DNA of 64,000 nucleotides, taken from a virus. The DNA lies in IMG/VR virus record IMGVR_UViG_3300038312_000193. One strand, written 5' to 3'. Numbering within the stretch: position 1 is the stretch's first letter; every line of letters begins with the position of its first letter. A program made the translations under genes and the position numbers. The notes under the pieces were generated by a model, which was not told the DNA's origin, did no database searches, and worked only from the letters and a program-made list of their open reading frames with translations. Shown one piece after another: positions 11,424 to 31,292 of the stretch.

Positions 11424-11600
11424 CAGGAAAATGAGATAAATCATGATACAATGTCCACCATCAACCGTATAATAATTATAGGGTTTTAATTCTTCTGGAA
11501 TATCATCAAAATATTTAATTGGTTTTATCATATGTTTTATATCTTCTAAACTTTTTCTCATATCAAACTCTTCTCCTTTCTTTTCTATTGTTAAAAACTG

Positions 11601-11999: not shown

Positions 12000-12008
12000 C
12001 CTCCTATT

Positions 12009-13049
12009 TTACATTCTAATTTCTTTGCTAATTGGTGGAAACTTACTTAAATAGGCAATTGCTCTTTCTTCAAATTTTGTAAGTTCTCTTACATTATACC
12101 ATCCTTTTTCACTTTCAAACATCTGCCAATATTTTTTACCTGTTTCTTTATCTGCTGTTGCCAGCCCACCCTTTTCTAACCCTTTTCCCACAACATAATT
12201 CGGATTAACTGTATACCCAAAATCAAATATGTTTCTACATTGGAATTGTGCTTTTTCTTCTGTTGCCGGATCAATAATTTCAACTATAGCGTAAGGATCT
12301 TTTTCTTCACCTTGAGAATAACCCTTTTTAATAATTTTAACATTCATTGTTTTCTTTTCTTCTTCGAGTTTTTGTTTTACTGCATCCTCTTCTTTTTTCT
12401 TTTCAATTCTACCTTGCAAAATATCGGTTAATTTTATTTCAAATCCAGTAACAACAATATTTTTATAACCATGATATTTGTGTGATTCTTCGTTATATTC
12501 AGGGTTTAGGACATCTCCAAGATCTTCAATTGTGCCAACAGATTTTTTAATTTTTCTTTCAATGTATTCACAAGAATTTGATACCCATTCATCACTACCC
12601 ATTACCTGTTTAATAGCTTTTTTCATAATTTCTTGTTCAAGTCCATTTAAATCTTCAGGTAAATTTCTTATCCAAGGTTGATAATGAGGCCAATCACACC
12701 CAACAATTCCAAAATGAATATTCCTTTTTCCTTCTACTAATTCATTCACTACTTGATTTATGTTTTGTTCCCTTTCTGCTTTAAATTGTTCAAAAAGATT
12801 TTTAACTTCTGTTAATATGTTCTCTGGTAGTCCTACACCATTAACTTTTTTACCTTTTATTTTTACGTCATATAAACTCATTGCATTATGCTGCGGTAGG
12901 AATTCAGAATTATAATAGTAACCTTCGGGATCATGTTTGTTTTCATGGATACCTTCAATTTTATGCGCCATAACTAATTTACCATACTGATTAAGTCTAG
13001 GATTTTTAAAATAAAATTTAATCCCTTGTTTTTCAAATTCAAAATTCAT
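12009..13049 (-). CDS. hypothetical phage protein (346 aa)
   Basis: Long ORF with SD and a promoter-like sequence at about 13120-13149. Confidence 0.7.
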   Translation of the reverse strand: MNFEFEKQGIKFYFKNPRLNQYGKLVMAHKIEGIHENKHDPEGYYYNSEFLPQHNAMSLYDVKIKGKKVNGVGLPENILTEVKNLFEQFKAEREQNINQVVNELVEGKRNIHFGIVGCDWPHYQPWIRNLPEDLNGLEQEIMKKAIKQVMGSDEWVSNSCEYIERKIKKSVGTIEDLGDVLNPEYNEESHKYHGYKNIVVTGFEIKLTDILQGRIEKKKEEDAVKQKLEEEKKTMNVKIIKKGYSQGEEKDPYAIVEIIDPATEEKAQFQCRNIFDFGYTVNPNYVVGKGLEKGGLATADKETGKKYWQMFESEKGWYNVRELTKFEERAIAYLSKFPPISKEIRM

Positions 13050-13471
13050 TTAAATCATTCCTTTCATTTTGTTTGTTATTCCTGTTTTACTTCCGATTTT
13101 CCTGTTGACCTTATGATTAATTATATCATGTTGGCAATATTAAAATCAAGTGTTTTTATAATATATTTATTTTATTAATTTGATATTGAGTCCAAATGTA
13201 CTTTTTATAATCTTATTACAAAAGCTTCAAAAAAGTAATTAGTATCCTTAATTTCATAGTCTGCTAAATGTGTTACTTGCCTCAAAACTTCGCCAATAAA
13301 ACCAAATGCCACTTCTTTCCCGTCAACAAAAATTGATAAATGACTAGCATTAAGGTTGTTAAAATTTATATCTCTTAGTTTCATTTCTCCTGCCTCCTTT
13401 CAACATGAAATCTCCTTTTAAATCATCATGATAAATGCCTTGTTTGATAATGTTTTTATTTTATTAATATA

Positions 13472-13500
13472 ATTATATACTATCAATTTAATACTGTCAA
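13472..13500 (-). promoter_or_regulatory. sigma-A early promoter
   Basis: Perfect TTGACA-17-TATAAT. Confidence 0.8.
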
Positions 13501-13509
13501 CATGAATTA

Positions 13510-14268
13510 TTAACTTACTTTTCTTTTATTATATTTTCTTTTAGGTTTTCTATTTATTTCTTCAAATTGTTTGTAATCTTCGGTTAACCATTCAAATATT
13601 TTCTCAAGTCTTTCTTGTGTAAAATTTGAATTATTTTCATTATACCATTCATCTAAGGTAAACTTCCATTTCTGATCATTACAACTACCACAAGAAGGAA
13701 TACAATTATTTAACCCATCCCCTCCTTCATGATTAACATGTTCTTTATGTAAATCAATTTTTTGTGGTTCACCAGCATATATACGATAATGATTTTCTAT
13801 AGGAAGTCCACAATAAGCACATTGATAGTTAAAATATTTTTTACAAGCATCCCATTCTTGTTTGGTTATATTATGGTTTTTATGTCTTCTATCTTCATTA
13901 TATTTAATCATTTTTTCAGGATATTTTTCAAAATATCTTTCAAAATACCCTCTTTCTCTTAACCCTTTTTGAATTTTTCTTCTTGCAAATAATCTTTCTG
14001 GTTTCCTATCATATTTTCTTTGATTTTCTAATTGTTCTTCATAATTATCTCTCTGTCTTATATCTGCTCTAATAATTTCACATCTTTTACAAGATGGATT
14101 TAAACCATCTTTTTTATTTTTAACATTTGAATAAAAATATTCATTAGTACATAATAACCAATCATCTTCTTCTGGAAAATAAATTTGATGATTTACACAT
14201 TTTTTATATAAAACTCCATCTATTTCTTTATGATAATCTTCGTAATTATATTTCGTACCTCTTGACAT
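13510..14268 (-). CDS. HNH endonuclease
   Basis: CAYCG...LHKEHV...NCIPSCGSCNDQK; N-terminal Zn ribbon. Confidence 0.85.
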   Translation of the reverse strand: MSRGTKYNYEDYHKEIDGVLYKKCVNHQIYFPEEDDWLLCTNEYFYSNVKNKKDGLNPSCKRCEIIRADIRQRDNYEEQLENQRKYDRKPERLFARRKIQKGLRERGYFERYFEKYPEKMIKYNEDRRHKNHNITKQEWDACKKYFNYQCAYCGLPIENHYRIYAGEPQKIDLHKEHVNHEGGDGLNNCIPSCGSCNDQKWKFTLDEWYNENNSNFTQERLEKIFEWLTEDYKQFEEINRKPKRKYNKRKVS

Positions 14269-14287
14269 TTATTATATAATCCTCCTT

Positions 14288-14584
14288 TTATACTTCTTTT
14301 AAAAATTCTCTCACATCAAAATCAAACGCTACTGCCAAATGTAACGCTTGATCAAACATAGGAATATTATTAGCGGTAGGTGCTAACCAAGAATATACAT
14401 TCGGGGAGGTATATCCTAACTCAATTATTTGTTTTGGTTTAATACCATACTCGGTTAATATTCTTTTGAGATTCTTCTTTATTACTTGCCTATCAACTAA
14501 ATTATACCGATTAATTAATTCTAAAAACTCTCTTTGTGTTTCTAATTTGTTTATCTGGTTAATTCTTGTTTCTAGAGTTTGCAT
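14288..14584 (-). CDS. XRE-type HTH protein
   Basis: NLKRILTEYGI...VYSWL...P.FDQALHLAVAFD. Confidence 0.6.
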   Translation of the reverse strand: MQTLETRINQINKLETQREFLELINRYNLVDRQVIKKNLKRILTEYGIKPKQIIELGYTSPNVYSWLAPTANNIPMFDQALHLAVAFDFDVREFLKEV

Positions 14585-15096
14585 TATTGATACTCCCTTC
14601 TTTGCTTGTAAATTTATTATATCATAAAATTAATAAGTCCCAATATTACGGCATTTCACCTGCGACCAAACCCAGGATTTATAACGATTCTGTTATGCTA
14701 TTTTCTCAATTAACCAAACGCCTGAATGAAACCATGTTTCTTTTGCTATACCTAAATCAAAACAATCTTTAATCATTCTGGCAACATCTAAATCAAAATC
14801 GTTATCCTCTAACCAATTTCCTGCTGATCCCTCAAATACTATTTTATTATCGTTGGTTACTCTTATGTTCATCTGTTATACTCCTTTCAAATTTTATTTA
14901 ATTACCTTTTCGATTATATTTCTCCACTCTTCCACTCTTGATTGATAGGCAATTTTTTCAGCATCTTTTTTATTTTCAAATACATCAATAATCTTTAGTA
15001 CTTCGTTTTTAACTAATCCAATCACAATATAAACTTTTTTATTTTTCATTTTTCAACCTCCTGTTATTATAAAATGATTGATTTATCATGATTTTA

Positions 15097-15900
15097 TTAA
15101 ATATATGCCTCCCACCAAACCATCTCAAAATTAAATCCTCCAATTATAACCCCACATCTATCACAATAAAATTTATTACCTTCTTCACGCAAATAATCTC
15201 TTTGTGTCCAATACGCATCCCAACAATGTTCATTTTCTATGAGATAATCTATCAATTCTTGTTTGGTTTGAAAATGTTTCCACATTATTTATCACTCCCA
15301 TTTAAATTTATGCCATACACATCTTTAACCCATCTTTTAATTGTATGACTATAATTTATAAGTCCTTCCCAATTACAAACTTCATCAAATACCTGGTCTG
15401 GTGATAATTGATTAAATATATTATCTTTACTCTTATCTGTTGCCTCTAAATCTTCTCGTTGTCTTAACTTTTTAAGAATATACTCAGGATATGCCATAAT
15501 ATATCTAACTCCTTTTCATATTTTATTGGCTTAATGCCCATTCCCATTGACAAGTAGGAGAAATTTTACCATAACCATAAGGATGATCTATTAATATTCT
15601 ACTATCAATTATTGTTTTTATATACCTTAAACCTTGGCAGTATTCTGATATTTCTATAATAGGATTATATTCTATGTTATTACGATAAAAAGTACAGTTA
15701 TGAACATTAATACCCTGGATGTAACTTTGTACTATTTCATCTTCTTTAGTAACTTCACCTATACCAATATGATTAAATTGTCCACAAGCTGAAGTAATTA
15801 TATATTTGTTACCATTGTCCTTTTCAAAAATAAAATATGCTTTCTTGTTTATGTACTGGTTATCTAACAACCAATATAAGTATTTTTTTAAATTAATCAT
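15097..15900 (-). CDS. three small hypothetical early genes (15097-15285, 15285-15497, 15523-15900)
   Basis: Co-directional ORFs with SDs, below the promoter at 15934-15962. Confidence 0.65.
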
Positions 15901-15933
15901 TTAAACCACTCCTTTATAATTTATTATAGTTAT

Positions 15934-15962
15934 ATTATAAAGGAGTGTATTCATATTGTCAA
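15934..15962 (-). promoter_or_regulatory. sigma-A early promoter
   Basis: Perfect TTGACA-17-TATAAT. Confidence 0.8.
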
Positions 15963-15994
15963 CATTATTTTCTTATTGTATTTATATTTTTATT

Positions 15995-16738
15995 CTAGTT
16001 ATACATTTCACCAAATGCTTTTGCCATATAAACAGGTACTCCATTACCTATCGCTTCGTATAAATTATAAATCCATTGTCCTTTAGTTTTATTTCTTCCA
16101 GTTTTACTATTAATTTCATTTAACCATTCTTCAGGAACATTATACCATTCTTTAGGTATTATAAAACCTTGATGATAAGCACATTCTTCTAAGGTTAGTC
16201 TTCTACCATAAAATCTACTTGCTCTACGTTTATCTTTAGTGCTACCTTTATATTCTGTTGCGGTAATACACGGACAAATATCTTTAAATGTTTTCTGATA
16301 ATCACTATATATATCGGGTAATTTATAATTCCCACCAATCATTCTATTCCTATTTTGAATTGGATGCTCAAGAAATTGTGCTGCATTAAATGGTTTACCC
16401 CAGGTTGGCATTCTCCCTTGAGGGATTACATTTTCAACCCACAAAATATCTTTTTTAATATTTAAACTCCAATTAAGAAAATCTCCTGCATATTTTGAAG
16501 TTGGTTCTCCTTGTGTTCTAGCGGAACTAAATTGTTGACATGGAGGGGATGCCCAAACAGCATCAAATTCCTTTAAATCAATTTGTGTTGCATCTGCTAA
16601 AATACAATTGCCACTACCTACAAATTTACTTAAATAATGTTTCCAAGGATCAAGTTCATATCCTGTACATTCATGTCCTGCTTGTTCTAATCCTAATCTA
16701 GCAAGACCTGCTCCATCAAATAATACTGCTATTTTTAT
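15995..16738 (-). CDS. Compact DNA cytosine-C5 methyltransferase (247 aa, AUA start)
   Basis: The in-frame extension contains VLFDGAG and WASPPCQ; then ENV, QNRNR, RRLT..ECA.HQGF and IGNGVP. Confidence 0.85.
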   Translation of the reverse strand: MKIAVLFDGAGLARLGLEQAGHECTGYELDPWKHYLSKFVGSGNCILADATQIDLKEFDAVWASPPCQQFSSARTQGEPTSKYAGDFLNWSLNIKKDILWVENVIPQGRMPTWGKPFNAAQFLEHPIQNRNRMIGGNYKLPDIYSDYQKTFKDICPCITATEYKGSTKDKRRASRFYGRRLTLEECAYHQGFIIPKEWYNVPEEWLNEINSKTGRNKTKGQWIYNLYEAIGNGVPVYMAKAFGEMYN

Positions 16739-16912
16739 ATGTATTTCCTCCTTTAATTATTATATTGTATTTTTAATGCATTAAATATTTTACACAATCA
16801 TCACTCCTTTATAAATAAAAATAGTATTAATTTCATTAGTTTTTTAAACTAAATCCACCAATACCATTAAAATATTTGGCGTTTATTATTTAATTATATA
16901 TTTATAATTAGT

Positions 16913-19900
16913 TTATTTAAAATTAACTCCTTGTTTTTTTAATATAGAAAAGATATTTTTTAACTGCCATTTTAAATTAATTCCTAATTCAATGGTCATT
17001 GTGTTATCATCCTCATCTGCAATGCTCATAAAATCCTGATATTCTGGTTGTAGTTTTAATGCTATTACATTTAGTTGTATTTGTAATGCTACATTCTTTT
17101 CATGTTCAAAAATCTTTAATACCTTTTTTGCTTTTTCTATTTCTTGTTTCAATTCATTATTTTCTTTTTTAAGTATTTCTAATTCTGTCATATTAGTCAT
17201 CTCCTTTAAAAATCGTTTATTAACTATATATATTATAGTAGCAATATATATAGATTGTCAATCACATATTTATATTATGTTTATAATTTTTATTTAATTC
17301 CTTAATAACCAGGTTTTAATATTAATAGAATACATTGTTTGAACCAAACGATTCTTCTATGCTGTTATAGGTAATTCCCATTGATAAGTATTTTCAGTCC
17401 ATTTATAACCTAATTCTATTAAGAATATATGAAAAAGTTCTTCTACCTTATCCCATAATTTTTCTTCGTTATCGGTAGTTATTTCTGCACATTTTGTGTA
17501 AATATAATTATATTGTTCATTACTTAAATTTACTTTTTCATAATCTTCGCTATTTTTGGTAGATTCTAATATTTCCGTTGCTCTTTTATTCATTATTAAC
17601 CCCACCTTTCTGTTATACATCAAATACCTATTTGGTTTACTTCCAACTGGCTACACATCCTAAATGAGATATTAAATAATCTTCGTTGGCAAATCTAAGT
17701 GTATAGCTTTTAAAGGATGTATTTTTAAATGATATTTCATTAGAATTTTTTAAATAAGTTAATTTGAAACTTGCGAAACTTCTTGATTTATAATTTCTTT
17801 TTGCAATAATGCTGTTATCTACTATTTCAAAATTATGTGATTTTACATGTTCTTTTAAGTATTCATACATTTCATTTATATTTTTCATTTTATCCTTCCT
17901 TTCAACTCATGACCAACTCTGAATTTTATACTAACACAACATTTATACACTTAGGGTAAATTTTATCTTCTCCAATGACAAGTAATGAGTACCATTTATT
18001 ATTTTTAAACCACATGCCAATATATAAATCCTTTAAAGTTTCAAGTTTCCAGTCTGTTATTATTTTTATGTTATTATTATCTGTCATTTGCAATTCATAC
18101 TCATTAAATTGTTCTTGATATTTATCGTATTTTTCACTAATCATTATATACAGTTCTTTTGCTTTGGTTTTTGATGTAAAAGGTATTTCAAAAACTACTT
18201 TTCCATCAAAGTAATGTAATCCTTGCAGTATATACGATCCTCTTTTAGAAGAATCTTTTATTATGTTAAACATACTTATATTTTTGTTCTGATAGTTAAA
18301 ACCTTTTACCAAACAATTAACTTTATATCCTGCATGATAAAATGGTTTTGTTCCTGCATATATACTTTTACCTTTAATAATATTAATTACTTCTCTAGAT
18401 ATTTCCCTTAATTCCTTTTCAGTAAAAAAATTTAAACCTTCCATTTTTAACACTCCTTCAATCTCTTTTATTCTTACTTATGCTCCATTTTCCAAAACTT
18501 AAATCATGATAAAAAAGTTATTTGGTTTTGTTATATTTAGTATATCATATCCGCAACATGAAAGCAAGTACTAATTTTATATTTTATAAATAATTATGCT
18601 ACTTTTTTGGTTTTATTGGTCTGTTTGTAATCTGCTATTATATTTACATCCTGGTTCTTTATCGGATCATGCCATAAATATTTTACTGTTAAGGCACATA
18701 CACCAATTAATATCCATCCTGCTATGGTATATAAGGTTAATATTGTTGCTGTGTTTATGTAATCCTGCGTTGTAATTATCATCCCTATCATTGTATTTAT
18801 ACCTCCTTATATAAATCCTTCCCAGGTTTTAAACCATTCTGAATAATCATAAAGTAAACCACTTTTGTTATAGCAATTTTTTATTACTATTCTGTTCCAA
18901 TTTACTTCTCCACTTTTAAATAAGTCTATAGATACCATACAATCAAGAATACATTGACGGTCTTTATAGATTAATAAGGATTGAGGTTTTAATGTGTAAT
19001 AATCTGCTACAAGTATGGCCTGTTGTAATTCTTCGGGCAGATCATCCCAATTCTCTGTAATAGTTTTTAATTGTTCTGTGGGATGTGATAAGTTAATTAT
19101 TGTTATTGACATTTGTTATACCTCCATCCGTTTTAATCTTTTTTTAATCAGATTTAATTCATCTTGAAAGAATTTAATCTGGTTAGGGTTATTTTCTTCT
19201 TGATGATATTTAATTGCTCCCTCAGTATAACCTTTACGATATAATAATTCCTCTTTGCTCAAACTTTTAACTGTGTTATATGCATATGAATTTTTATATT
19301 CAATTTTTTCATAACCTATATCATTCATTCGATATACCTCCAATATTTTTATATTAAGGTTTTTGTGCAGAACCTTTAAAACTGCTCTGTTATTGCTTTA
19401 AAACAACCTTGTATATAATCCTGTTACTGAGGTAAAAATGTCTTCTAACATATCGGCATAAACATCTTTGTATTCCTTAATGATTACAATCTCTTCATCA
19501 TAAATTTTAATTCCCATTGCTTTATACTCTGGTGTTTTACATTCAGGTTTTAAAGTCTTTTTAATTCTGCTGAATGTCAAGTTATAGAGATCAAGGCCAT
19601 TAAGTTGTATTTTAAGATACTGAGCCTTTGAATTATTCCTGGTTAGTTTGATGACAAGATATACATACCCTAAATCATCATAACCGTAATACTGGAATTT
19701 ACTGCCTGTCATTATTAAAAACTTACTACCTCCAATTTGTTGAATTATTGTTCTGTAATCACCTATTCTAATTTCATTCTGTTCTGTTATTGCCATTATG
19801 TAAAACCTCCTTATAATCCCCATTTTGCAATTTCAATTTGTGTATGTTTCCGTAGTAAGTAATTAGTACAATCTGTTATTAAACTTTTGAGCCATTTTAT

Positions 19901-20613
19901 CGCCAGTTCTTCATTCCAATCTAATTTTAATTCATAATCTTCAATTTGGTATTCGAGAAATTGCAAGGATTTTAAAACCTGTTCTACGGTCTTGTAATCG
20001 TCTGTTATTTCTCTTTGCATCATTACCTTATAAATAAAATCATCCTTTGTATATACCTGTTCTGCCTGATCATCTTTATATCTGTTATTCCATGATTTAA
20101 CATTCAAGCAATGTAAATAAAATAACTGTTCGGCTCTTTCTTCTGGAAATTCTGTATGTCTTTGTATAAATTCCATCTCACACATTCTAAACATTTGGAT
20201 ACCGTTTAGTAATCTTGTGTATCCTTTTAAATCATCAATCAAAATAACACTCATTGTTATACCTCCTTTTCTATCGCCCAATCTGTCCATGAATCTCTTT
20301 CAATCACAAATAACTGGTTGTTAATCTTTATCTCTATTCCGTCTTTTAACGGACAATCTGGTTCACCTGTAAATGTATTCCAATGATTGACATAAACACC
20401 TTTTGAATATCTATCATTTATATGTCTACTGTACAATCTGCTTGTATTCTTATCTTTGTATATCTCCCTGCAATAACCTTCTTGGTTTTCGATTTTGATT
20501 AAATCTAACATTCGCATACACTCCTTATATACTTTATTTATATTATTAATATGATTAATATATAATAAAATACATACTGTCAACATGTAATTATTTTGAT
20601 TTTTATACTTCAT
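16913..20613 (-). CDS. cluster of ten small hypothetical early genes (16913-17200 ... 20257-20512)
   Basis: Tightly packed ORFs with GGAGG SDs; one membrane protein (18594-18791). No recognisable families. Confidence 0.65.
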
Positions 20614-20655
20614 ATTTAAAGGGATGTTACAACATCATAACACCCCTTATAACTT

Positions 20656-21693
20656 CTATGCTATTTCTTGTTCTCCTTGCACCTGTTCTTGTTTTCCTTG
20701 CCATTCTTCAAATAATTCCTGTAATCCATTTAACCTTCCATTAACTCTTTCTTTTTTTGTTGATCCTGCGCCACAATTATTTTTATAAGCATCTCCTGGT
20801 TTACTGTTTTTACTGTACCATGTAATGAAGTTTGTAGATTCATGTTTACTCTTTTGGGTATTTAAAAATCCTACCATAGACGTTATGTTAATCTTAGTGC
20901 AGAATTTATTATATTTATTGTTAAAGCTATCTGCTATTACTGTAAATAATTCCTCTGTGCGGTTTAATACTTCATCTGTTATTGTGTTGGTCACAAAGAA
21001 TTTTTCAACATCCTTTGCTGCAAAGGTACAAAAATCAAGTCCTGATACTAAGATAATTGATTGAAGTATAGTCATTTGTTTATCTGATTTCTTTATTGCT
21101 CCTGGTGTAAAGTGAGCAACATCGGTAAATAGTTTATGTTCTGTTATCATTCTCTTAACAAATTCTCGTACATTTTTCTTAGCTGATACTAAAGCAAGAT
21201 GCTCTTTACTTACGACTTTACCATTATTCAAACGATAAAAAATATCATTTACGATTGATTCTTCATCATCATTATCGTCAAGTTCGATAAGTTTAAAGGC
21301 CAACATGAAACTTTTGATTTCATCCTGCACTTCTTCTGGTAGTTCTGAAAATTTCTTACCAGAGATATTGAATTTTTCACCTGTAGATTCAAGTTTGATT
21401 TGTGGGAGTTCTGTAAGCTGCCATTCATCGTTAATAAAAGAGTGAATAATAGTAAGACGTTGGAGGCCATCAATAATACTGTAAGTATTCCCTGATTCTT
21501 GTTTCTCTTGTATGGCATAAATATCAGGCACAAACATTTCTAAAATAGAATGGATTAACAATGACTTATCTTCATTTTTCCATTGTCCTGCTGGTCTTTG
21601 CACAGGATTATCAAAAACTATAGTTCCTTTATTAATCATTGTGCTAACCTGCTTTACTGACCATGATAAACTTTTTCTTTGCATTCCGAACAA
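20656..21693 (-). CDS. DUF262 (ParB/Srx-fold, GmrS-like) domain protein
   Basis: FDNPVQRP..W, LLIHSIL, IIDGLQRL and FYRLNNG; no C-terminal HNH. Confidence 0.85.
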   Translation of the reverse strand: MFGMQRKSLSWSVKQVSTMINKGTIVFDNPVQRPAGQWKNEDKSLLIHSILEMFVPDIYAIQEKQESGNTYSIIDGLQRLTIIHSFINDEWQLTELPQIKLESTGEKFNISGKKFSELPEEVQDEIKSFMLAFKLIELDDNDDEESIVNDIFYRLNNGKVVSKEHLALVSAKKNVREFVKRMITEHKLFTDVAHFTPGAIKKSDKQMTILQSIILVSGLDFCTFAAKDVEKFFVTNTITDEVLNRTEELFTVIADSFNNKYNKFCTKINITSMVGFLNTQKSKHESTNFITWYSKNSKPGDAYKNNCGAGSTKKERVNGRLNGLQELFEEWQGKQEQVQGEQEIA

Positions 21694-21723
21694 CTCCTTT
21701 TAATTAATTTCTATCTTATGTTT

Positions 21724-21752
21724 ATTTTATACCTTTGGTTTCATGTTGTCAA
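21724..21752 (-). promoter_or_regulatory. sigma-A early promoter
   Basis: TTGACA-17-TAAAAT. Confidence 0.75.
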
Positions 21753-21783
21753 CATTAAAATAAGAATAAACGATAATTATTTT

Positions 21784-22631
21784 TTATCCTGTTGGTTCAA
21801 GATCATGCGAAATACACCAGGAACAAAATACATCTATATTAGTTCCTATTCCTTGTTGCTGTCTTACTTGTTGGTAATTATTCCAATCACAATACCAACT
21901 ACCAGCTTTGTAATAGGTCTTAATTCCGTTTACATAGCGGATTTTTAGATTACTAGTTGACTTTGTTTTGTTGCTCTTGTTTTTTGTTCTCATTTTATAC
22001 ATCTCCTTTTTATTTTTTGTATTTTAATCCTTCTTAATATGTCGGCTCTGTCATTGTCGGCACATTAAGCAGGATTAAACCTGCTTATAATTTATATTAT
22101 TGTTATGTCAAAATTCCACTCAATACAATCCTTTGTTAAATATCCATTAATATGATCTCCTTCTCTTCCTGTTAATTTCCAGCCTATTTGTTTAAAAAAC
22201 TCATAGTATTTATAAAAATATTCATTATTTGACTTTTTAAATATTTCCCATTTTTTACCGTTTGCTTTATCTGTAATAGTTTTAATCAACATTTTTTAAC
22301 CTCCTCTTATAACTCGTTACCTAATTGTCATTTGGTTTAATTATATTATTTGTTTTGCTAATGTTTCCGTTAATGGGAATCTAACTTGCTTAAATACATT
22401 GTCGTAAAACCTTGGATAATTAATATAGTCTGGAATAATCTCGCTACCATCAGGTAATAAAACTGATTGACTATAACTGCCCAATGACTTGATGCATTCC
22501 TCAATGCTGTTATAGACTTTTATACAATCAAAAGTATTGTGTTCAATCTCATAGGGTGATCTGTTATTCCATGCCCAATCATTAATTTCTCTGATCCGCA
22601 TTTTACCATCATAAAAAGCTTGATAATGCAT
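21784..22631 (-). CDS. three small hypothetical early genes
   Basis: ORFs 21784-22002, 22092-22292 and 22341-22631, each with an SD. Confidence 0.6.
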
Positions 22632-22897: not shown

Positions 22898-22926
22898 ATT
22901 ATAAACCCTGCTATTCATATTGTCAA
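22898..22926 (-). promoter_or_regulatory. sigma-A early promoter
   Basis: Perfect TTGACA-17-TATAAT. Confidence 0.8.
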
Positions 22927-23053
22927 TATGATTTTGCTACTATCTTTATATTTTTTATTTAATTCTCTGAAAAATAAATGCCATTATTCAGGCATTCACA
23001 AAACGGCAAATAGTCATAAAATCAATCTTTTGTAATGTTCGGGAATTGTTCTG

Positions 23054-23452
23054 TTATGCTGATTTATTACTTATATATTGATAATATTTATCTGGTAATT
23101 TTACCATTAATAATAACCTGTTTGTTATTTGTCTATGCTTTTTGCAATGTCTCCATTGTTCTATATGTGCTAATTCGTGACAGATTACTTCTTCTAATGT
23201 TTGACCGTTTAATTCCCATGTGCTGGTAATACTATCTAAAATAAAGTATGTATAGCATTCATGGACAAAAAATTCATCAATTGTTATATGGTAAATATCA
23301 AATTGGTTTCTCCAACATATTCCTAATGATTCTTTTGATTTGCCTTTTAAAGTGCTATGATCCATAATTGTTATATTAATATCCATAGTGCATTCGATTT
23401 GAGTTAATGTTTTTTGTACTGTTTGATCAAAATATTCTTGCTCTGTTATCAT
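23054..23452 (-). CDS. SprT/zincin-like metallopeptidase
   Basis: ICHELAH...H motif. Confidence 0.7.
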   Translation of the reverse strand: MITEQEYFDQTVQKTLTQIECTMDINITIMDHSTLKGKSKESLGICWRNQFDIYHITIDEFFVHECYTYFILDSITSTWELNGQTLEEVICHELAHIEQWRHCKKHRQITNRLLLMVKLPDKYYQYISNKSA

Positions 23453-23696
23453 GCTTTTATACCTCCTTTCTTTATAATATCATATTCCTGCTATACTGTT
23501 ATGCTGTTTTACTTAATAATTTCCGTAGTTCTTGTTCTGTTATTTGATGTTGCACAAATAAGGTTATTAATTTAGTTTTCGTCAATGTAGCATTACCTCC
23601 TTCCTGCTGTTATTGTATTTAATTCCTTTTTAGAGTGCTAAACTGTTATTGTTATTTATATTATGTATATGTTTAGCACTCAGGAAAAGAATTAAA

Positions 23697-26127
23697 TTAT
23701 ATTGCTAATCTTTGTTTAATCTCCTGCTCTTTTTCAAATCCTGTTATGTCAATTTCTCCTGATTTAATACTGTTTTTTAAATCTCTGATAGCACACGGAC
23801 AAAAACCTTTTTTATTAAATGTTTCATTTTTTACTTCTTGCCAGAATTTTTTATCTTCCATTCTTTTCTTTTCCTTAATTGTTTTGATTCTATTATTAAA
23901 TTGATTTAAAGTATTTTCTAGTGCTGAGTCAGCCTTTTCTATTCCGTATTCTTCTAATACTTTATTGTATCGGTTTATTACCTCTTCTTTTGTGATTCCT
24001 GTTAGTTCGGCTGTTATTGCTGTTTTAACTATTTGATCAACCAATTTGTTAAATTGTTTTTCTAACATCTTTTATTATTCCTCCTTTTATTATGCTATTT
24101 CACTTTTATATTGTATTCTGTTTATTAGATCATTACATAGTTCTGTTATAGCATTGGCCTGTTTTTCACTCTCCGCATTAAAAGGTATTTCGTCTTTTAT
24201 TAATTCTAAACTGTTAATGTTATACTCAAAAATGTATTCTGGCATACAGTAGGATATTGTCTCAGCTAACATATTAAATCTTCCCAGGATAACAGGGTAT
24301 TCTTGCCAATCAATATTATTTTCAATTTGTATTATATCCTTTGTAGAGATTAAACCAGATAGCATATTTTTTGCTACTCTGACCATTTCTTTTTCTACTA
24401 TATTGTTTTTATATGCCTGATAATAATATGAGTAATTACTAAGTAATTGATCTTTTTCTTTTTTGTTCATCCTGTTATACCTCCAATCTATTTATTGATC
24501 CAATCGGTTATTTGGTGTTATTGTTATACTAATTCTAAAAAATCAATTTTAATATTTCGAGTAACACCATTTACTTTTACTTTAGCAATATTACCAGATT
24601 CTTTTGTATTTATTGCCATTACTTTTCCTTTTTCAATTGGTACTAATTTGATTACAGGATCAAACTTTTTAACTCTGTTATTATATTTTTCATTAGTCTT
24701 TACGGTATCACCTATTTTAATATTCATTTCGTTACCTCCTTCTGTTATTTGTTTTTAAATTGCATGTAGTCATTAATATCTAGCAAGCTGTAAACATAAC
24801 CTAATAAACTGTTATGCTTATATATTGCGTATGTTTTTTCGTTTTGATCGTATATTAAGGTTATGTTATGCTTATTTTCGTAGTGTTTAATTGCTTGGTG
24901 TTTACTCATTTTTATTAACCTCCTTCTGTTATTCTGTTATTAATTTTATCATATCAGTAATATGATAGCAAGATAAATTTATTTTGTTGTTATAGTGTTA
25001 TGCTGTTAATAAATCGTTATATCTTACTACTCCTTTTATATAGCTCCCGATATCTCTAATTTTAGCAGGTAAATAATATGGCAATTCTTTTTGTTGCAAT
25101 GTTTTATTGAGGTTATACCATTTTATAAAATAGTTATGTTGATATTCGGTGAATGATTTTATTAGTTTTTGTATTTCTTCAATTGTGAGTGATCCTTCAT
25201 ATTTTCCGTATATGCTGTTATTGTTTATTAATTTGTCAAGTGATACATATAATTCGTTAATTTTATAACAATAGTCTTTTATTTGTTCTTCAAGTAAAAA
25301 CATATACTGGTTATAGTCTGATTCTGTTATTTCTATCATATTGTTATCACCTCTTTTCTGTTATAGTTTATTATAATCCTTTATAAATAGCACTACAATT
25401 TATTTTATTACTGTAATGCTATCTAAAAAAATTATAATTCCGTATGTAGTAATAACCTAGCAGGATCAAGACGGTTAAATATATCCTGCACATTAACCAT
25501 GTTGTCGCTGTTATAAAATTTTTCAGATTGTAAATACTGGTATAGTTCTGTTATTAGTTCGGCTGATTCTGTTATACGGTTTTTTAGTTCCTGGTTATCT
25601 TCCTGTAATTGTTTAATATAATTCATCGTGTTACCTCCTGTTATTTTAGTTTTCTATAAACTCTACTAAATGTAAGCCTTGATGCCAATTATATTTTGAT
25701 ATCTGACCACTAAAAATATTATAATCAGCATCGACAAACAAGGTAATACCATTTACATCTTTTTTTATTTCTTCCCGATATGGCTTGATATATGTTTTGC
25801 CTAATAGATGATGTGTATCACCTGTTATGTCGTAAACATCCGCAAATAAACCATTATCAGTTAATACGCTTGCTTTAATATCAGTAATATTAATCATTCT
25901 GTTACCTCCTATTTATGTAATATAATTTTATTTTGTTGTTCCCAACCTTTTAACCAGTTATTTGTTATTTGTTCTTTTAATTCGGGAAATGTACTCCATA
26001 ACCATTGACAACATGTGTCAAGTGCTGGTTGCCGATATCCTGCCTTACACCTGTAATTTTTACCACAAATAAAAGCAATATTTTCTGCTTGATTTTTAGT
26101 GGTTTTTAAAAGTGATTGATAATTCAT
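23697..26127 (-). CDS. cluster of seven small hypothetical genes
   Basis: ORFs 23697-24068, 24090-24470, 24524-24727, 24998-25339, 25432-25626, 25646-25897 and 25909-26127, all with strong SDs. Confidence 0.65.
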
Positions 26128-26141
26128 TATATTACCTCCTA

Positions 26142-26448
26142 TTATAATTTTACTGCTATAGTTCCATTACGAACCCAACAATCCGAATTGCCTATAACTG
26201 TTACTATTGTTATAGTTCTGTATGTTATATTGCAGACTACGCTAAAATTATTTTGTTTGTCCATGATGAAAATATCACGGTTAGAACCACTGTAATCTGT
26301 TATGGTTTTTTGGCCTAATGATAGGATTGATCCTGTTACCTGATACAAGTCAATTTGTCTTTCTTGTAGTCGCTGTTCTGCGTGATTTGTTAAGCGAATA
26401 GAGTAGGTTTTGTTTTGGATTGTAAATGACAATATCATTATTCCTGGT
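26142..26448 (-). CDS. DUF4258/RelE-fold-like protein (possible RNase)
   Basis: IRLTNHAEQRLQER...ITIVTV pattern; start placed after AGGAGG. Confidence 0.5.
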
Positions 26449-26637
26449 TTCCTCCTTCTGCTACTGTTATGGGAATTATAGGATTTTTGGGTAATGGTAC
26501 TATTATTATACATTGTTTCACCTCCTTGTATGTTAATAAATCCTTTATTGAGTGCTATATATTTTAATTATATTACTGTTATACTGTTATGCTTTTATTA
26601 GCACTCTAAAAAGATTTAATTATATTGTTATTGTGTA

Positions 26638-26916
26638 TTATGCCTCTACTAATTCAAAATGATGTCCACTATATCCTTTATCTAAAATACTAACAGAATA
26701 TAATTTGCCAGTTTTACATGGTGGCAGGTTATAATTTGGATATTGTACATGATCATGTGGTGGAAAATAAGCAAAATTGTCTTTTGTGGCCTTCAACATT
26801 ATTTTTTTACCGTTGTTGTTCTCATGTTGGTATACTACCTTGGAATTTTCAACGTGTGCAGTTTCAAATACTTCATGAGGTTTGTTATTCATGCCTAGAT
26901 AAATTATTTTTTTCAT
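26638..26916 (-). CDS. hypothetical protein
   Basis: ORF with AGGAGG SD. Confidence 0.65.
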   Translation of the reverse strand: MKKIIYLGMNNKPHEVFETAHVENSKVVYQHENNNGKKIMLKATKDNFAYFPPHDHVQYPNYNLPPCKTGKLYSVSILDKGYSGHHFELVEA

Positions 26917-27041
26917 TATTTGATCCTCCTATACTTCTATTATTTTACTTCTCTGTTATAGTTTTTAGAGGTTATGTTAATACCCTCTATAGAGCCATCA
27001 TTTTATATTACCATTTTATGATGACTCTAACAAGGTACTAA

Positions 27042-27539
27042 TTATGCTATTGCTTGTCTTTGTTCTCTTTCATCTCTGTTAACCATTTCGCTACCATATA
27101 AATTGCGAATTTCTTCTATAGTTAATTCTTTTTTGGATTTTTTGCGGAAAGTTCCAGGTTTCCAGTACCAAGCTAATTTTTTGCCTGAGAAGGTGAAACC
27201 TAACTCTTTTAATATGTCTTTATGTTGTTTGGTTTCGCCTGTTATCCAAAGCCATGTGCCACAAAGTTCTATTGTTATTCCTTCAAGGTTTATTATTTTG
27301 TCTATGATTTCTCTGTATCCATCAAAAGGATCGAAATTTTGTGTATACTCTTTTTTGGTTTCATGGTTGTAACCTGTAAAAGTTTTGTTCTTGAATGCTT
27401 CATACTGTAGGTTAATCTGCTTCATTGTTTCGGTGGTATCATTGTCATGGTTATGGTCTGGATGAAATTTTTGTGCAAGTTCTCTGTAACGTTTTTTAAT
27501 TTCCTCTATTGAGTTACAATCGGAAAAATAGTTTAACAT
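27042..27539 (-). CDS. Phage J-domain (DnaJ-like) protein
   Basis: EEIKKRYRELAQKFHPD...MKQINLQY. Confidence 0.85.
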   Translation of the reverse strand: MLNYFSDCNSIEEIKKRYRELAQKFHPDHNHDNDTTETMKQINLQYEAFKNKTFTGYNHETKKEYTQNFDPFDGYREIIDKIINLEGITIELCGTWLWITGETKQHKDILKELGFTFSGKKLAWYWKPGTFRKKSKKELTIEEIRNLYGSEMVNRDEREQRQAIA

Positions 27540-27631
27540 TTTTATCAATCCTTCCTTATGTTTATTTTATTGGTTTAATATCCTCTATAGAATACATTAA
27601 CTGTTATATGCTAATGTATTCTAACAAGATA

Positions 27632-27997
27632 CTAAATAAAATATAGTTCGTTATTAACTTCCAAACTAATTGCATCCTGGTTTGATATTTCTTTTAATTC
27701 TTCTCCTATTTCTATAGCTGCTTCGATGCTATTTTCTAGGTTATTACTATAACTGAAAACTACTACTATTTTTTCCTTTATCAATTCTCCTGCTACACTT
27801 TTCCAATAGCCTAACGCCTGTGTTGATGTTGCTCCTCCGTTAACTTCACTAAATTTACTAGCTGTTAAGTCTACCATTTTTTGAATTAAATCAGTTGGTA
27901 GTTCCTGGTTGTTTTTGTCTCTGGTTGGTACATATAAACTTACTTTGTGAGATAGTTTAAAAAGGTTTTTTAAGGTTTTTTTGTTTTCGTTATTCAT
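27632..27997 (-). CDS. hypothetical protein (DUF3574/GlnB-like ferredoxin fold possible)
   Basis: GGAT..QA.GYW....GELIKE pattern. Confidence 0.45.
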   Translation of the reverse strand: MNNENKKTLKNLFKLSHKVSLYVPTRDKNNQELPTDLIQKMVDLTASKFSEVNGGATSTQALGYWKSVAGELIKEKIVVVFSYSNNLENSIEAAIEIGEELKEISNQDAISLEVNNELYFI

Positions 27998-28081
27998 TTT
28001 GTTATAATCTCCTTTTTGTTTTTTATTTAAGGGAATAACCCTTATTTTTTGAATCAAATTTCGGTTTGGTGTTGAGTGGTT

Positions 28082-28258
28082 TTATAATCCTGCTAATTTT
28101 AATCTGGTAAACTCTTTTGCTGCCTCGGTATAAGATGTATACTTTTTGTCGTTGAATTTGTTACGGACAATGTATTCACCTGCTTCATTAATTCCTAATT
28201 GTAAGATACCTTTAAAATTAAGTTCACGATTTTTTAATACTTCAATTTTCTCTCTCAT
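28082..28258 (-). CDS. small hypothetical protein (58 aa), first gene of the operon
   Basis: GAGGTG SD; MREKIEVLKNRELNFKG... Confidence 0.6.
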   Translation of the reverse strand: MREKIEVLKNRELNFKGILQLGINEAGEYIVRNKFNDKKYTSYTEAAKEFTRLKLAGL

Positions 28259-28326: not shown

Positions 28327-29230
28327 TTTTTTATAAATTTATTTTATATTTTTAATGTGCTAGAAATGCCTATATTACGGGATTTGTAGGGTATGCATAA
28401 ATATTCATAAAAATAATTTTTTATACATTTATATGGTTTAAATGCCTATATAATGGGGTTTGTGAAATATTAGTACGTTGATGTAAGGTATACATTAAAT
28501 CATGTATATTATACAGGTTTATGAATAGATATGCATTGATTGAAGTAGGTTTATGCTCTTTTATACCCTATGAGGGTATGTAGAAATGGCTTAATATTGG
28601 GGGTTTGTGAGGTATGGAAAAATGAGGTTGTGTAGTGCGTTTTAAGGTATGTATATTTATTTTATTGATATAATAGTCGTGAGAGTGGGAATGTTGGGTG
28701 TAGGTGGTATAATGTAGGTATGGTGGGATTTTTGGGGATTTTGGTTTGTACAAGGTTTATGCATCGATAATGTATATTTATATTGTGGGTTTGGTTGTGG
28801 CCTGGATTGATTTATCTAATATCTTACTAACTAATCATTATAATAATATTGTATCGTCTTATATTTATTATATAATAAGTTATTATATTTTTATGTTGCT
28901 ATCTTATTATCTTATTATATTACTAACATATTATATTATTATTATGTGATATTATTATGTTGATATACTAACATCATATTAAGTTTATATAATTGTATCA
29001 ACATATCATATTATAATATTACCATATTATATTCGCATATTAATATTTTATTATTTTAACAATTTAATATCATATTATTATAATAACTTAATATCTTAAT
29101 ATTATAATAACATAACTTTTTATTATCTTATAATTATAATATGATGTTGGTTTAATATGGTACTAATATTATAATATAGTGGTATAGTTAGGTTATATGT
29201 TAGTTAGATTGTAGGATATTAAAATAATAG

Positions 29231-29260
29231 GCAAAAAAAATAAACCCCATGCGGGGTTTA
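29231..29260 (-). terminator. Rho-independent terminator
   Basis: TAAACCCC GCAT GGGGTTTA followed by T8. Confidence 0.85.
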
Positions 29261-29480
29261 TCTAATCATATCCGGTCTTTGCTGCATTGCCTTGTAAACT
29301 CTGCTGTAACCGTAATGATTTGTGATTTGGCCTATTATCGTATCTTTATTGGACTGACGATTAATTGATATGTGAGCTTCTTTTGCTAATTGTAGTAGTT
29401 CGGATTTTTTGCACTTGCTTAATATTTCGGTGCTTGCCTCCCTGGTCATTGATTTTAGCTGATTGATTAATTCTGCCATC
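29258..29480 (-). CDS. small helical protein (possible Rho-N/SAP-like)
   Basis: KKSELLQLAKE.HI......K..II; has its own promoter (29558-29586) and terminator. Confidence 0.55.
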
Positions 29481-29749: not shown

Positions 29750-30793
29750 CTATTTTAATCTCAATAATAATTCTGCCAGTTCAAATTGAGCATTAAGATA
29801 TTTATCCTCAGTTAATCTGAAGAATTTATTTATTGCTATGCTATTTGGTAAACCTATTATATCATCCATATACTTTTCTATTTGTTGATCATATTCTTTT
29901 TGGCTCTTTTCTAAATTATATTTTGCTTGCTCATTTACTGCATTTATTACTTTATCATTTAACATTATTCGTTGCATATTTAATTCGGCCTGTTGCAACG
30001 CTTGTATTATATGATCCTTGACAAATATTATTTTAATATCAGTATATATATAATTTATATTATAGTTCTCTTTTAATAACTCATTTACTCTATTGTAAAA
30101 TTCTTTATGCTTGAATTTTAAATACACTAAAGTAATGCTATCTAGGTTCATTTCATTAAGTACTATTTTCTTTATTGCTAATATGTTTTTCTTTTCTTCA
30201 TCGGTAGCAGGTCTTATATTATTATGTAATATTTCGTTTATATCTGGCTCAATAATATTAATCATAGTTAATTCTTCATAATCAATTAGACATCTATTTT
30301 TTAGATTACGCAATGTATCAAATAATATCTTCCTTAACTTTTGATAGGTTCGCTGATAAAAATGGTTTATTTGATAGTTTGTAATGATGTCATTTTGTTT
30401 CTTTAGTTCCTCTTTATTTTCTTGTATGTAGTTTGAATTGATCATACCCATTAATAAAAATAGTTTCTTTAGAGTTAGTGTGGTAGTATATCCTTGTTGC
30501 TTAGATAGATAGTTGAGTAATATTAATTCAATATGTTGTATATATTTACTTGTGTTGCCTAATGATCTTTTATCTTCTTTTGGTAATGGTTGGTTGTATA
30601 TCTCAGTAATTATGTATTTTTGTCCTACTTTTTCATAATCAAAGTATCTTTGCCATTCTTTATGTTGTGATTTTTTACTGTCTCCTGCTTTTATTTCTTG
30701 TGATAGTAAAGCGCATAAGGTTTTATAATTTTTGATTGTATCGCCAGGATGTAAAGTTTTTTGGATTTGATTGTATAATTTTGTATCTGGCAT
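29750..30793 (-). CDS. Putative DNA-binding/replication protein, paralog A
   Basis: AGGAGG SD before MPDTK; alignable to 33118-34269. Confidence 0.65.
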   Translation of the reverse strand: MPDTKLYNQIQKTLHPGDTIKNYKTLCALLSQEIKAGDSKKSQHKEWQRYFDYEKVGQKYIITEIYNQPLPKEDKRSLGNTSKYIQHIELILLNYLSKQQGYTTTLTLKKLFLLMGMINSNYIQENKEELKKQNDIITNYQINHFYQRTYQKLRKILFDTLRNLKNRCLIDYEELTMINIIEPDINEILHNNIRPATDEEKKNILAIKKIVLNEMNLDSITLVYLKFKHKEFYNRVNELLKENYNINYIYTDIKIIFVKDHIIQALQQAELNMQRIMLNDKVINAVNEQAKYNLEKSQKEYDQQIEKYMDDIIGLPNSIAINKFFRLTEDKYLNAQFELAELLLRLK

Positions 30794-31292
30794 AATGGTA
30801 TTAGTTCCTCCTTTTATATGGTATATAATTTGTGGCGTATGCATAGCATAGGTAATTATATTATAGCATAGTTGGTTGTGATTTGCAATTTGTTTATATT
30901 ATAGATATAATGGGATTTATAACTGTATTAGTTGAAGTAGTACAGTTAATACAATATTACTTCGATGGCAAATTTCCTGTTATCAAATCCGAATATTTAG
31001 AAGTTTATCTAAATATCTAAATATTATTCGTTTGGGCGTATTCTGGCAGGTTGTGGCCTGATACTATGAGTAGATACCAGGATTAATCAGGATCAATTCT
31101 ATATCATTAGTTTGTGCAGCTTAACCCGTATTTATTCCCTTCATTCCTGCCATAATGCAGGATAACACATATTATCTAGTATTAATTAATAGCTTGTAAA
31201 TGGCTATATATCGGTATTTGTAGCTATATTCAAACATTTATTACATTACCAATATATTATTATCCAGGCTAGACGGGGGTACTTTACAAAAA

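Follow-up and report, generated by a model that had tools for sequence, protein, structure and literature searches.

The T4 endoribonuclease RegB acts on GGAG in early mRNAs and times early expression; its GGAG is part of the ribosome-binding site and does not lie in codons. Sponge and tag RNAs, such as CsrB and RsmZ with their GGA loops or the eukaryotic AU-rich elements, are non-coding RNAs or untranslated regions that carry many short words, often in loops. On DNA, the stoperators bound by L5 gp71 and its relatives are dozens of asymmetric, transcription-oriented sites, found also outside promoters; they are 13-14 bp long, the same as the repressor's promoter operator, almost exclusively intergenic, and present in both arms. 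Chi is a signal for the RecBCD or AddAB enzyme of the host itself and varies from one host to another; the sequences known from Firmicutes are GCG-rich and vary with the genus. In phage LLS, 20 of the 23 Chi sites are in active orientation and half are clustered at one end, and in phage MD8 their orientation is 32 versus 0 (PMC12315714). MrpR, the master repressor of SPbeta, binds its asymmetric site as a monomer; ten peaks are reported for it, all in promoter regions (PMC10516654). We describe here an array of a seven-letter word for which we found no published description, a full-text search for the word giving no phage paper, and no described phage control system that accounts for it.

The window, a stretch of 64,000 nucleotides from IMG/VR record IMGVR_UViG_3300038312_000193, comes from a large SPbeta-like phage, the group being identified by a YonO-type single-subunit RNA polymerase (40061..42874, plus strand). 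Its early small-gene block is dominated by ATAACAG on the coding strand, that is, CTGTTAT on the plus strand. The dense block (23051..27607, minus strand) comprises about 12 small early genes with their spacers and holds 30 sense copies in 4.6 kb, or 6.5 per kb. All 30 positions listed in the first-pass annotation are exact matches, and the sole inverse copy is the one at 24289. The thinning tail that it had put at about 22 copies down to 8.2 kb proved to contain 23, clustered, in the downstream early operons (8247..22567, minus strand). An isolated sense copy lies at 30977..30983 (minus strand), 133 nt upstream of the gene at 29750-30844. Over the leftward early arm the ratio of sense to antisense copies is 53-54:1. 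No copy was found in positions 1-8246, which encode MrpR-like repressor, DndB-like, TnpB, SLT and methylase genes, and the 32-kb right arm, for which a handful had been noted earlier, has three sense and no antisense copies.

Between 22900 and 27800, ATAACAG is the most frequent 7-mer, its 30 copies comparing with 1.1, 1.5 and 3.3 expected under composition models of order 0, 1 and 2. The excess noticed at first stood; it had been set against a rough expectation of less than one copy, where we computed about 1-3. Across the window we counted 58 matches, whereas dinucleotide shuffles gave 14.0±3.6 and none of 100 reached 58; ATAACAG was also the top outlier in a sliding scan. Among all single substitutions of the word, ATAACAA alone was also enriched. 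We found neither a conserved flank nor a fixed spacing.

Half of the dense copies (15 of 30) lie within coding sequence. Shuffling of synonymous codons in the 12 coding sequences of the dense block left 5.4±1.7 copies and reached 15 in none of 1,000 trials, and shuffling of codon order left 0.9±0.9; the enrichment therefore survives a codon-preserving control. Copies occur before the ribosome-binding site, between this site and the ATG, on stop codons and inside codons, and they are denser between genes (17 per kb) than in coding sequence (4 per kb). Within genes, copies keep out of the frame in which the word would be read as TAA and use the other two only; where that frame does occur, at 23051 and 23496, the TAA acts as a stop codon. 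Ile-Thr dipeptides number 23 in the dense-block coding sequences versus 7.9 expected. The placement described earlier, near Shine-Dalgarno sites, in hairpin loops and in Ile-Thr codons, was seen again. A seven-letter word is thus strong enough to reshape proteins, with Ile-Thr at three times expectation. ATAACAG is selected at the level of the nucleic acid, as an oriented, multicopy site, and on this proposal of the first-pass annotation the shuffles and the arrays of the relatives agree.

The dense block stops exactly at the start of a new strong promoter and coincides with one transcription unit. This sigma-A-type promoter, with a perfect TTGACA-17-TATAAT (22898..22926, minus strand), directly follows the last dense copy and a weak terminator-like hairpin, and it marks the end of the dense unit. 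On the upstream side, a strong intrinsic terminator (29238..29263, minus strand) closes a one-gene unit (29258-29482, with its promoter at 29558-29586), and the array operon must therefore start downstream of it. There we found a non-coding stretch (28330..29230, minus strand) whose first part, of about 500 nt, has a C-rich, G-poor sense strand with repeated CATACC-like units, and whose second part, of about 400 nt, is nearly pure A/T. Synteny with the SPbeta pac site, among other features, suggests that this stretch contains the operon promoter and the region of an origin or genome end. The first two genes of the operon (58 and 141 aa; 27632..28258, minus strand) are devoid of ATAACAG, as is the homologous operon start in the related locus L004.

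The same locus in relatives, where the first-pass annotation had suggested looking for equivalent motifs, contains the same polar word. In at least nine relatives, ATAACAG fills the early arm in the same sense orientation. Two of these carriers belong to cultured hosts, namely, Geobacillus virus E3 (sense:antisense, 15:1) and a Clostridium botulinum plasmid-prophage (21:0). The ratios are 31:0 in L004, 20:0 in L013, 23:0 in L016, and 17:2, 20:1, 12:0 and 8:0 in four others, whereas one to four copies are expected per array. The genes of the arrays are mostly nonhomologous between phages, and in those that are orthologous, copies have been gained and lost through point changes. Judging from these comparisons of sequence, ATAACAG is kept in number but not in position across phages with different genes. 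The presence of many sense copies in relatives although the genes differ indicates a selected control signal. Enrichment is confined to about 10-20 kb; the remainder of the plasmid (210 kb) and of the E3 genome (141 kb) shows none. ATAACAG arrays are absent from SPbeta, BUCT082, c-st, Sundance and WRP3, and L002 and L006 have another lineage-specific word of 7-8 nt, AATACATA.

We looked for RNA structures around the word. Five hairpins follow stop codons in the dense block, all on the minus strand. The first (27570..27637; -26.3 kcal/mol in sense and -15.7 in antisense) displays ATAACAG in its apical loop, the second (26976..27042; -26.4 and -14.4) is followed by a copy at 26953, the third (26536..26619) has two copies in a 40-nt loop, the fourth (25372..25435; -22.7 and -8.0) has one 12 nt downstream, and the fifth (23616..23698) has one copy in its 27-nt loop, at the 3′ edge, plus a second 8 nt past the stem. 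ATAACAG is thus in the apical loop at three of the five and 8-14 nt past the stem at three. The predicted structures are much more stable on the sense strand, with 15 versus 5 G-U pairs, and they are conserved while the upper-stem sequences diverge. The same loop display was observed in E3, L013, L016 and the C. botulinum plasmid. When eight arrays were pooled, 20.6% of the copies were in a hairpin loop compared with 12.4% of composition-matched controls (p = 0.002), and 20% of the 97-nt segments centred on the word folded at ≤ -18 kcal/mol compared with 5% of controls, an association that is confounded with intergenic location and to that extent counts against a role of the RNA. Predicted mRNA accessibility was not above that of composition-matched heptamers (0.29 versus 0.27; p = 0.29), and the bias toward sense-strand folding was no stronger around ATAACAG than around control hairpins.

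Strand polarity does not separate action on RNA from action on DNA or in replication, because every array arm is transcribed in one direction. The sense-specific hairpins, the loop display and the coincidence with one transcription unit make the evidence lean toward RNA over DNA. The arrays are found only in the early lytic small-gene arm and are absent from the lysogeny module at 1-8.2 kb. We tentatively favour, at somewhat less than even confidence, a multicopy word on the early polycistronic RNA that is read by a probably phage-encoded factor. The early sense transcript would carry AUAACAG as a cis-acting, position-independent docking or cleavage site. The word would mark the early polycistronic mRNAs of the lineage for one trans-acting factor, which would set their fate through processing, stability, timed shut-off or translation. 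We infer that RNA rather than DNA is read, with early mRNA coming under control as a result. The reader is probably encoded by the phage, since phages infecting Clostridia and Bacilli share exactly this word.

Like RegB sites, ATAACAG is a short word typical of early sense transcripts, but it runs through codons, and for its cognate nuclease there is a candidate at most. Late genes do not clearly avoid it. The right arm has its three sense copies against roughly six expected by our estimate from composition, E3 has 11 outside the array against about 20, and in the backbone of the C. botulinum plasmid the count equals that of a control word. Outside the arrays, the word is therefore not clearly avoided, unlike what would be predicted for a destructive RNase. 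As in sponge and tag RNAs, copy number counts and position does not; ATAACAG, however, overlays protein-coding early mRNA.

The most concrete candidate for the reader, on weak grounds, is a PIN-PhoH fusion (44010..45221, plus strand), a putative RNA helicase and RNase. Among the window proteins tested, it alone, apart from the marker protein described below, has homologs, and full-length ones, in the plasmid and in E3, the two complete genomes that bear arrays. No homolog was found in SPbeta, BUCT082 or c-st. Its presence in Sundance and WRP3, both without ATAACAG arrays, counts against the link. It may be, although we think it unlikely, that lineage-specific words form a cis-code that time-stamps early transcripts and is read by a phage enzyme binding single-stranded RNA, here PIN-PhoH.

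We also considered that a phage DNA-binding protein might coat, silence or road-block a toxic early lytic arm in the lysogen, which is possible but which we doubt. A candidate is the winged-helix-like marker protein of 364 aa at the head of the arm (29750..30844, minus strand), which has no Pfam family and whose fold gives a weak hint of tandem winged helices and a coiled coil. The first-pass annotation had named this protein and its paralog at 33118 among its candidate readers. For the paralog, a search of two complete genomes with arrays detected no homolog. The 29750 family does co-occur with the arrays, being present in all ten array-bearing genomes or contigs, and in the phage collection searched it was not found in SPbeta, BUCT082, c-st, Sundance or WRP3; this co-occurrence is biased, because all loci were found through the marker protein. 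Moreover, the marker also occurs without an ATAACAG array, in L008, L009 and a B. velezensis prophage, and there the gene lies in replication- or packaging-like contexts. The context of the 29750 protein resembles that of a replication or regulatory winged-helix protein.

Silencing of the arm would have its analogue in cluster A mycobacteriophages, with their stoperators, or in a nucleoprotein filament built head to tail. As with stoperators, the sites are numerous, asymmetric and co-oriented with transcription in a temperate phage. They extend over the early lytic genes but do not reach the MrpR-like lysogeny module, and in the plasmid copies sit in promoter-like spacers. MrpR itself provides a precedent for a monomer on an asymmetric site (PMC10516654), and its operator SPBRE is likewise a repeated asymmetric element of the early arm in the same phage group. 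However, ATAACAG is unrelated to the SPBRE consensus that we derived (about ACAAATACAAAWAATATGTATATAA), whose ATACATA core was antisense to the downstream gene in the sites examined. Seven nucleotides without a conserved flank are very short for a repressor. Unlike stoperators, half of the window's copies lie in codons and the array occupies one early arm only, and silencing leaves unexplained the display in loops of RNA-type hairpins that form on the sense strand only.

Another hypothesis, which we hold improbable, is that of a promoter box: ATAACAG would serve as the upstream (-30) element in early or middle promoters specific to the phage, one per small gene, and recognition would fall either to a phage sigma factor or to the host RNA polymerase aided by a phage activator, as at the T4 MotA box. 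It draws on the C. botulinum plasmid, in which most copies are intergenic and resemble a DNA promoter or operator, a point that also speaks against action on RNA. In this plasmid, a strict TATAAT-like hexamer lies exactly 9 nt downstream of 7 of the 22 copies (1.5 expected), about 12 of the 17 intergenic copies fit a relaxed pattern by eye, and the distances to the start codons would give leaders mostly of 20-50 nt. Sundance also has a polar word, TTACATTA, within a promoter-like element of about 38 bp before early genes. In the window and seven other arrays, however, no -10-like hexamer was found at any fixed offset. Many copies abut or follow the ribosome-binding site or sit deep in coding sequence, and 30 promoters for 12 genes are implausible.

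It is less probable still that the array is a Chi-like signal for end protection or recombination, lying just inside a genome end and facing a helicase-nuclease, the host AddAB or a phage enzyme, that enters there. The word is polar, position-independent, the commonest k-mer and densest beside the divergence region, where synteny places the pac site of SPbeta and the terminal repeats that c-st and Sundance have. LLS and MD8 provide precedents (PMC12315714), and the terminal Chi clusters of Rec-less lambdoid phages and P1 are similarly strongly one-oriented, end-clustered, spread through coding sequence and gained or lost by point mutation (PMC12315714). A polar oligomer over-represented through coding and noncoding DNA, as expected of Chi, is thus present. 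Protection of this type is nevertheless unlikely: phages infecting two bacterial classes, with C. botulinum, Geobacillus and uncultured hosts, share one word, whereas known Firmicute Chi sequences differ from genus to genus. The 6.5 copies per kb are far above known Chi clusters, at three to six times their density, the rest of the plasmid and E3 genomes is not enriched, and the window has its own exonuclease and UvrD-type helicase.

A replication signal is very improbable. On the lagging-strand template, ATAACAG would mark where primase starts or where forks meet a polar barrier, with an origin at the AT-rich 28.8-29.2 kb. The array does start about 0.7 kb from an AT-only patch with iteron-like repeats, and the word would be on the lagging-strand template of a leftward fork. 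Against this, the right arm has no mirror-image enrichment, the array is local rather than genome-wide, and the first copy lies anywhere from 1.2 to 3.7 kb away from the marker gene, depending on the phage. Partition and translocation, both proposed in the first-pass annotation, fit poorly since the array is local and without genome-wide skew; we rejected a KOPS/SRS-type translocase guide as there is no replicon-wide converging skew, the enrichment covering only about 10-20 kb of the 141-kb and 210-kb genomes. An integron attC cassette site, which has an imperfect pair of inverted cores at either end of a cassette, was discarded, the inverse word having one copy in the arm and copies lying inside genes.

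ATAACAG has been kept over the whole divergence of a lineage that infects Clostridia and Bacilli, and it must therefore serve a major step of early infection. As two carriers, E3 and the C. botulinum plasmid-prophage, are in culturable systems, the question is directly testable. Action on DNA would mean a silencing or end-protection array of a new type. If the word acts on RNA, it would represent a new way to give a whole class of early mRNAs a common fate, and if the words are a cis-code read by PIN-PhoH, the widespread phage phoH gene would gain a function.

ATAACAG was the strongest outlier in a sliding 7-mer scan of the window. Matches in the whole window numbered 58, compared with 14.0±3.6 after dinucleotide-preserving shuffling. 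All genes to the left of ~31 kb lie on the - strand, and CTGTTAT on the + strand therefore reads ATAACAG in the transcript sense. The left arm contains 54 sense copies and a single antisense copy, with 30 of the sense copies in the dense block at 23051-27607, 23 in 8247-22561, and 1 at 30977. The dense-block coordinates listed in the first-pass annotation were all exact CTGTTAT matches on the + strand, and the lone inverse copy that it reported in this arm was found at 24289. Three copies, all in sense, lie in the 32-kb right arm, whose genes are on the + strand. In the interval 22900-27800, ATAACAG was the most frequent 7-mer, with 30 copies compared with 1.1 to 3.3 expected under order 0 to 2 models. 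The saturation is real, highly significant, and conserved. A full-text literature search for ATAACAG returned no phage paper, and the dense block showed no DNA similarity to any phage record; as far as this search reaches, the array is not known to have been described.

The window belongs to a large SPbeta-like temperate phage, and its products include the N-terminal domain of an MrpR-type repressor (1-825), a YonO-type single-subunit RNA polymerase (40061-42874), a PIN-PhoH fusion (44010-45221, + strand), a UvrD-type helicase, and, where the two arms diverge, a tyrosine recombinase. The polymerase shares 50% identity with the Bacillus phage BUCT082 enzyme and 31% with its Clostridium phage c-st counterpart. 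Its G+C content is 27%. Its DNA was found in fermentation, landfill, and sludge metagenomes, and none of the sequencing runs listed for this stretch is of RNA. Viral-contig scans using the J-domain protein and the protein encoded at 29750 as queries gave no match, and two scans of genome contigs were likewise empty. A word-free section of the left arm harbors an IS605 OrfB/TnpB gene with a Cas12f-like TNB domain (3177-4217). Between 28330 and 29230, some 500 nt that are C rich and G poor on the sense strand, with CATACC-like repeats, are followed by about 400 nt of nearly pure A/T. The tract may serve as an origin, mark a pac site or genome end, or act as Rho-loading leaders; judging by synteny, the SPbeta pac site would map to this region. 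The adjoining 29258-29586 segment is a one-gene unit with a near-consensus promoter carrying a TG extension, a 74-aa open reading frame, and a strong intrinsic terminator. On visual inspection, the 74-aa product may resemble a Rho_N/SAP-like helix-extended-helix.

The first-pass annotation had proposed that selection acts on the nucleic acid, and the enrichment persisted against a codon-preserving shuffle. Fifteen copies fall within the 12 dense-block coding sequences, compared with 5.4±1.7 after shuffling synonymous codons within each gene, and none of 1,000 shuffles reached 15. Shuffling codon order in the same sequences left 0.9±0.9 copies. Ile-Thr dipeptides occurred 23 times in the dense-block genes against 7.9 expected, and thus the word has shaped protein sequences. 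It is denser between genes (17 per kb) than within them (4 per kb). Intragenic copies use both frames in which TAA is not read; the remaining frame would read TAA, and there the word provides the stop of an upstream gene, at 23051 and 23496. Among single substitutions, ATAACAA alone was enriched, with 25 copies in the arm versus 4 in the right arm. On the 5′ side, the flank is A rich and nothing more, and the copies showed neither favored spacing nor a conserved neighbor from -30 to +45.

Relatives were fetched using as a marker the 364-aa product of 29750-30844 (- strand), at the head of the arm, for which 78 homologs were obtained. In every fetched contig with an early small-gene arm, ATAACAG was enriched on the sense strand, so that the equivalent polar motif that the first-pass annotation had suggested seeking in related phages is the same heptamer, on the same strand and in the same arm. 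Against an expectation of 1 to 4 copies per array, sense and antisense copies numbered 31:0 in L004 (marker identity, 63%), 20:0 in L013 (54%), 23:0 in L016 (45%; 33% G+C), 17:2 in L015 (66%), 20:1 in L006 (67%), 12:0 in L002 (68%), and 8:0 in L010 (48%). Two array carriers come from isolates. In the 210-kb Clostridium botulinum plasmid-prophage NZ_CP022401.1, all 21 array copies, at 15.4 to 25.2 kb, are in sense, and the word is at control-word level in the remaining 200 kb. In Geobacillus virus E3, which is cultured on G. thermoglucosidasius, 15 of the 17 minus-strand copies fall within 15 kb of early arm. SPbeta, BUCT082, c-st, Brevibacillus phage Sundance, and Lactococcus phage WRP3 have no array. 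None was found either in the one 74.6-kb contig of phage D-1873, a partial genome from which the early arm may be missing.

The genes beneath the arrays are mostly unrelated, with a handful shared in tblastx comparisons, and L013 and L016 have no detectable DNA similarity to each other. Of the copies in the few genes that are orthologous, some are retained and others are a single base change apart, e.g., ATAACAG versus ATAATAG. Across the relatives, copy number is kept and positions are not, which is the hallmark of continuing selection for the word itself. The near-identical contig pairs L013/L014, L002/L003, and L006/L007 differ at few positions, too few for a test of purifying selection.

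The best reading, which we hold tentatively, is that ATAACAG is a multicopy RNA word that would mark early polycistronic transcripts for a phage-encoded reader. Its main rival, a DNA-binding array, appears rather unlikely. Strand polarity does not discriminate between RNA and DNA since transcription of each arm runs one way only. We lean toward RNA on the basis of three observations. First, the dense block contains five long hairpins after stop codons (23616-27637; z scores of -3.7 to -7.1), which have a lower stem and an internal loop in common and upper stems of variable sequence. They are far more stable on the sense than on the antisense strand owing to 15 G-U pairs (-26.3 versus -15.7, -26.4 versus -14.4, and -22.7 versus -8.0 kcal/mol). 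The five hairpins are therefore elements of the early polycistronic RNA. They are similar to the RNase III sites in early RNA of T7 and SP82 and are probably RNase III-type processing or stabilizing sites. Second, three of the five hairpins display ATAACAG in their apical loop, which is widened to 27 to 40 nt in two of them, and three have it 8 to 14 nt past the stem. Loop display was seen again in E3, L013, L016, and the C. botulinum plasmid. With eight arrays pooled, 20.6% of the copies were in hairpin loops compared with 12.4% of composition-matched controls (p = 0.002). Separately, 20% of the windows centered on the word folded at -18 kcal/mol or below, versus 5% of controls. Third, the dense block coincides with one transcription unit, with a strong terminator upstream (29238-29263) and, after the last dense copy, a weak terminator-like hairpin followed by a perfect TTGACA-17-TATAAT promoter (22926-22898).

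Other observations count against RNA. Predicted accessibility was no higher for ATAACAG than for composition-matched heptamers, the sense-minus-antisense folding bias around it was no stronger than at control hairpins, and its association with hairpins is confounded with its intergenic location. Most copies in the C. botulinum plasmid are intergenic, with a TATAAT-like hexamer exactly 9 nt downstream, an arrangement that looks like a DNA promoter or operator. Neither the window nor seven other arrays show this spacing, and the fit of a promoter box is limited to the plasmid. At 15400-25200 of the plasmid, the word is set in a longer intergenic repeat, about TCTATATAACAGAAAAGTTCCTATAAT. Other genes of the plasmid include rpsO, which encodes ribosomal protein S15, and one for a PemK/MazF toxin.

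Phages of Clostridium, Geobacillus, and uncultured hosts have an identical word, and its reader is therefore either a product of the phage lineage or a host machine that is universally conserved. Among the window proteins tested, only the marker and the PIN-PhoH fusion have homologs in both complete array-bearing genomes and are absent from SPbeta, BUCT082, and c-st. PIN-PhoH proteins have been reported to be coupled RNA helicase-RNases (PMC4826407). Sundance and WRP3 encode PIN-PhoH yet carry no ATAACAG array, and neither has a marker homolog. Co-occurrence of marker and array is biased, as all array loci were fetched through the marker. The marker is also found without the array, in two small prophage-like elements and a Bacillus velezensis prophage, where it adjoins packaging genes or a 967-aa protein, perhaps part of a replication module. 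In the two small elements (L008 and L009, one of them in Syntrophomonas wolfei), neither of which has the array, the marker homolog (53 to 56% identity, near 10001-11070) has a major capsid protein gene on one side and terminase and portal genes on the other. The early region of the B. velezensis prophage, an arbitrium prophage, contains ATTACATA eight times in sense and never in antisense at 10000-25000 (0.6 expected), together with the marker homolog. The marker protein, whose homolog in E3 is gp200, belongs to no Pfam family and has no solved relative by sequence. Foldseek gave only weak MukE/ScpB-like rows, VIA-align a match confined to the C-terminal helical hairpin, and the Atlas a "transcriptional regulator" lead of less than high confidence; these weak hints would point to a winged-helix fold. 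Neither the 606-aa protein (38224) nor the 141-aa protein (27632) has a detectable homolog in E3 or the plasmid, and the paralog at 33118, a candidate in the first-pass annotation, fails likewise.

A Chi-type cluster at a genome end is a very improbable alternative. By synteny, the array would start close to both the SPbeta pac site and the c-st and Sundance terminal repeats. On paper, it closely resembles the terminal Chi clusters of Rec-less lambdoid phages and P1, in which Chi is the commonest octamer, is concentrated at one end, and occurs at 20 versus 3 or 32 versus 0 by orientation (PMC12315714). However, Chi varies with the host, whereas ATAACAG is unchanged between hosts and absent from the remaining genome. 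Stoperators share polarity and copy number with the array but differ in length, location, and repressor-operator identity. The SPBRE consensus that we derived from SPbeta for the operator of the master repressor MrpR is unrelated to ATAACAG, and no copy occurs between PIN-PhoH and the late genes, which disposes of a YonO promoter. A translocase guide and an integron attC site failed their defining tests, the latter having no inverse partner. Pairing with the tRNA-Asn anticodon loop would involve UUAACAG, and the T-first variant is at background. No complementarity to the 16S rRNA 3′ end is known, and both pairing ideas were dropped.

ATAACAG is not the only polar word in early arms. L002 and L006 have a second sharp one, AATACATA, i.e., (A)ATACATA, with 32 sense copies and 1 antisense copy counted over the entire loci, located before ribosome-binding sites and inside genes and interspersed with ATAACAG. 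ATACATA numbers 21 sense versus 2 antisense copies in the early arm of BUCT082 and 27 versus 15 in SPbeta; many of these lie within homologous genes and could reflect selection or composition. All 18 copies of TTACATTA in the last 16 kb of Sundance, next to the terminal repeat, are in sense, and the word forms part of a conserved element of ~38 bp, TGTGWTTTT-N11-TTACATTAATATATGAAG, ahead of early genes. This element is therefore probably a phage-specific early promoter. Given the additional words of L002, L006, and Sundance, lineage-specific polar words may therefore be a general feature of early arms.
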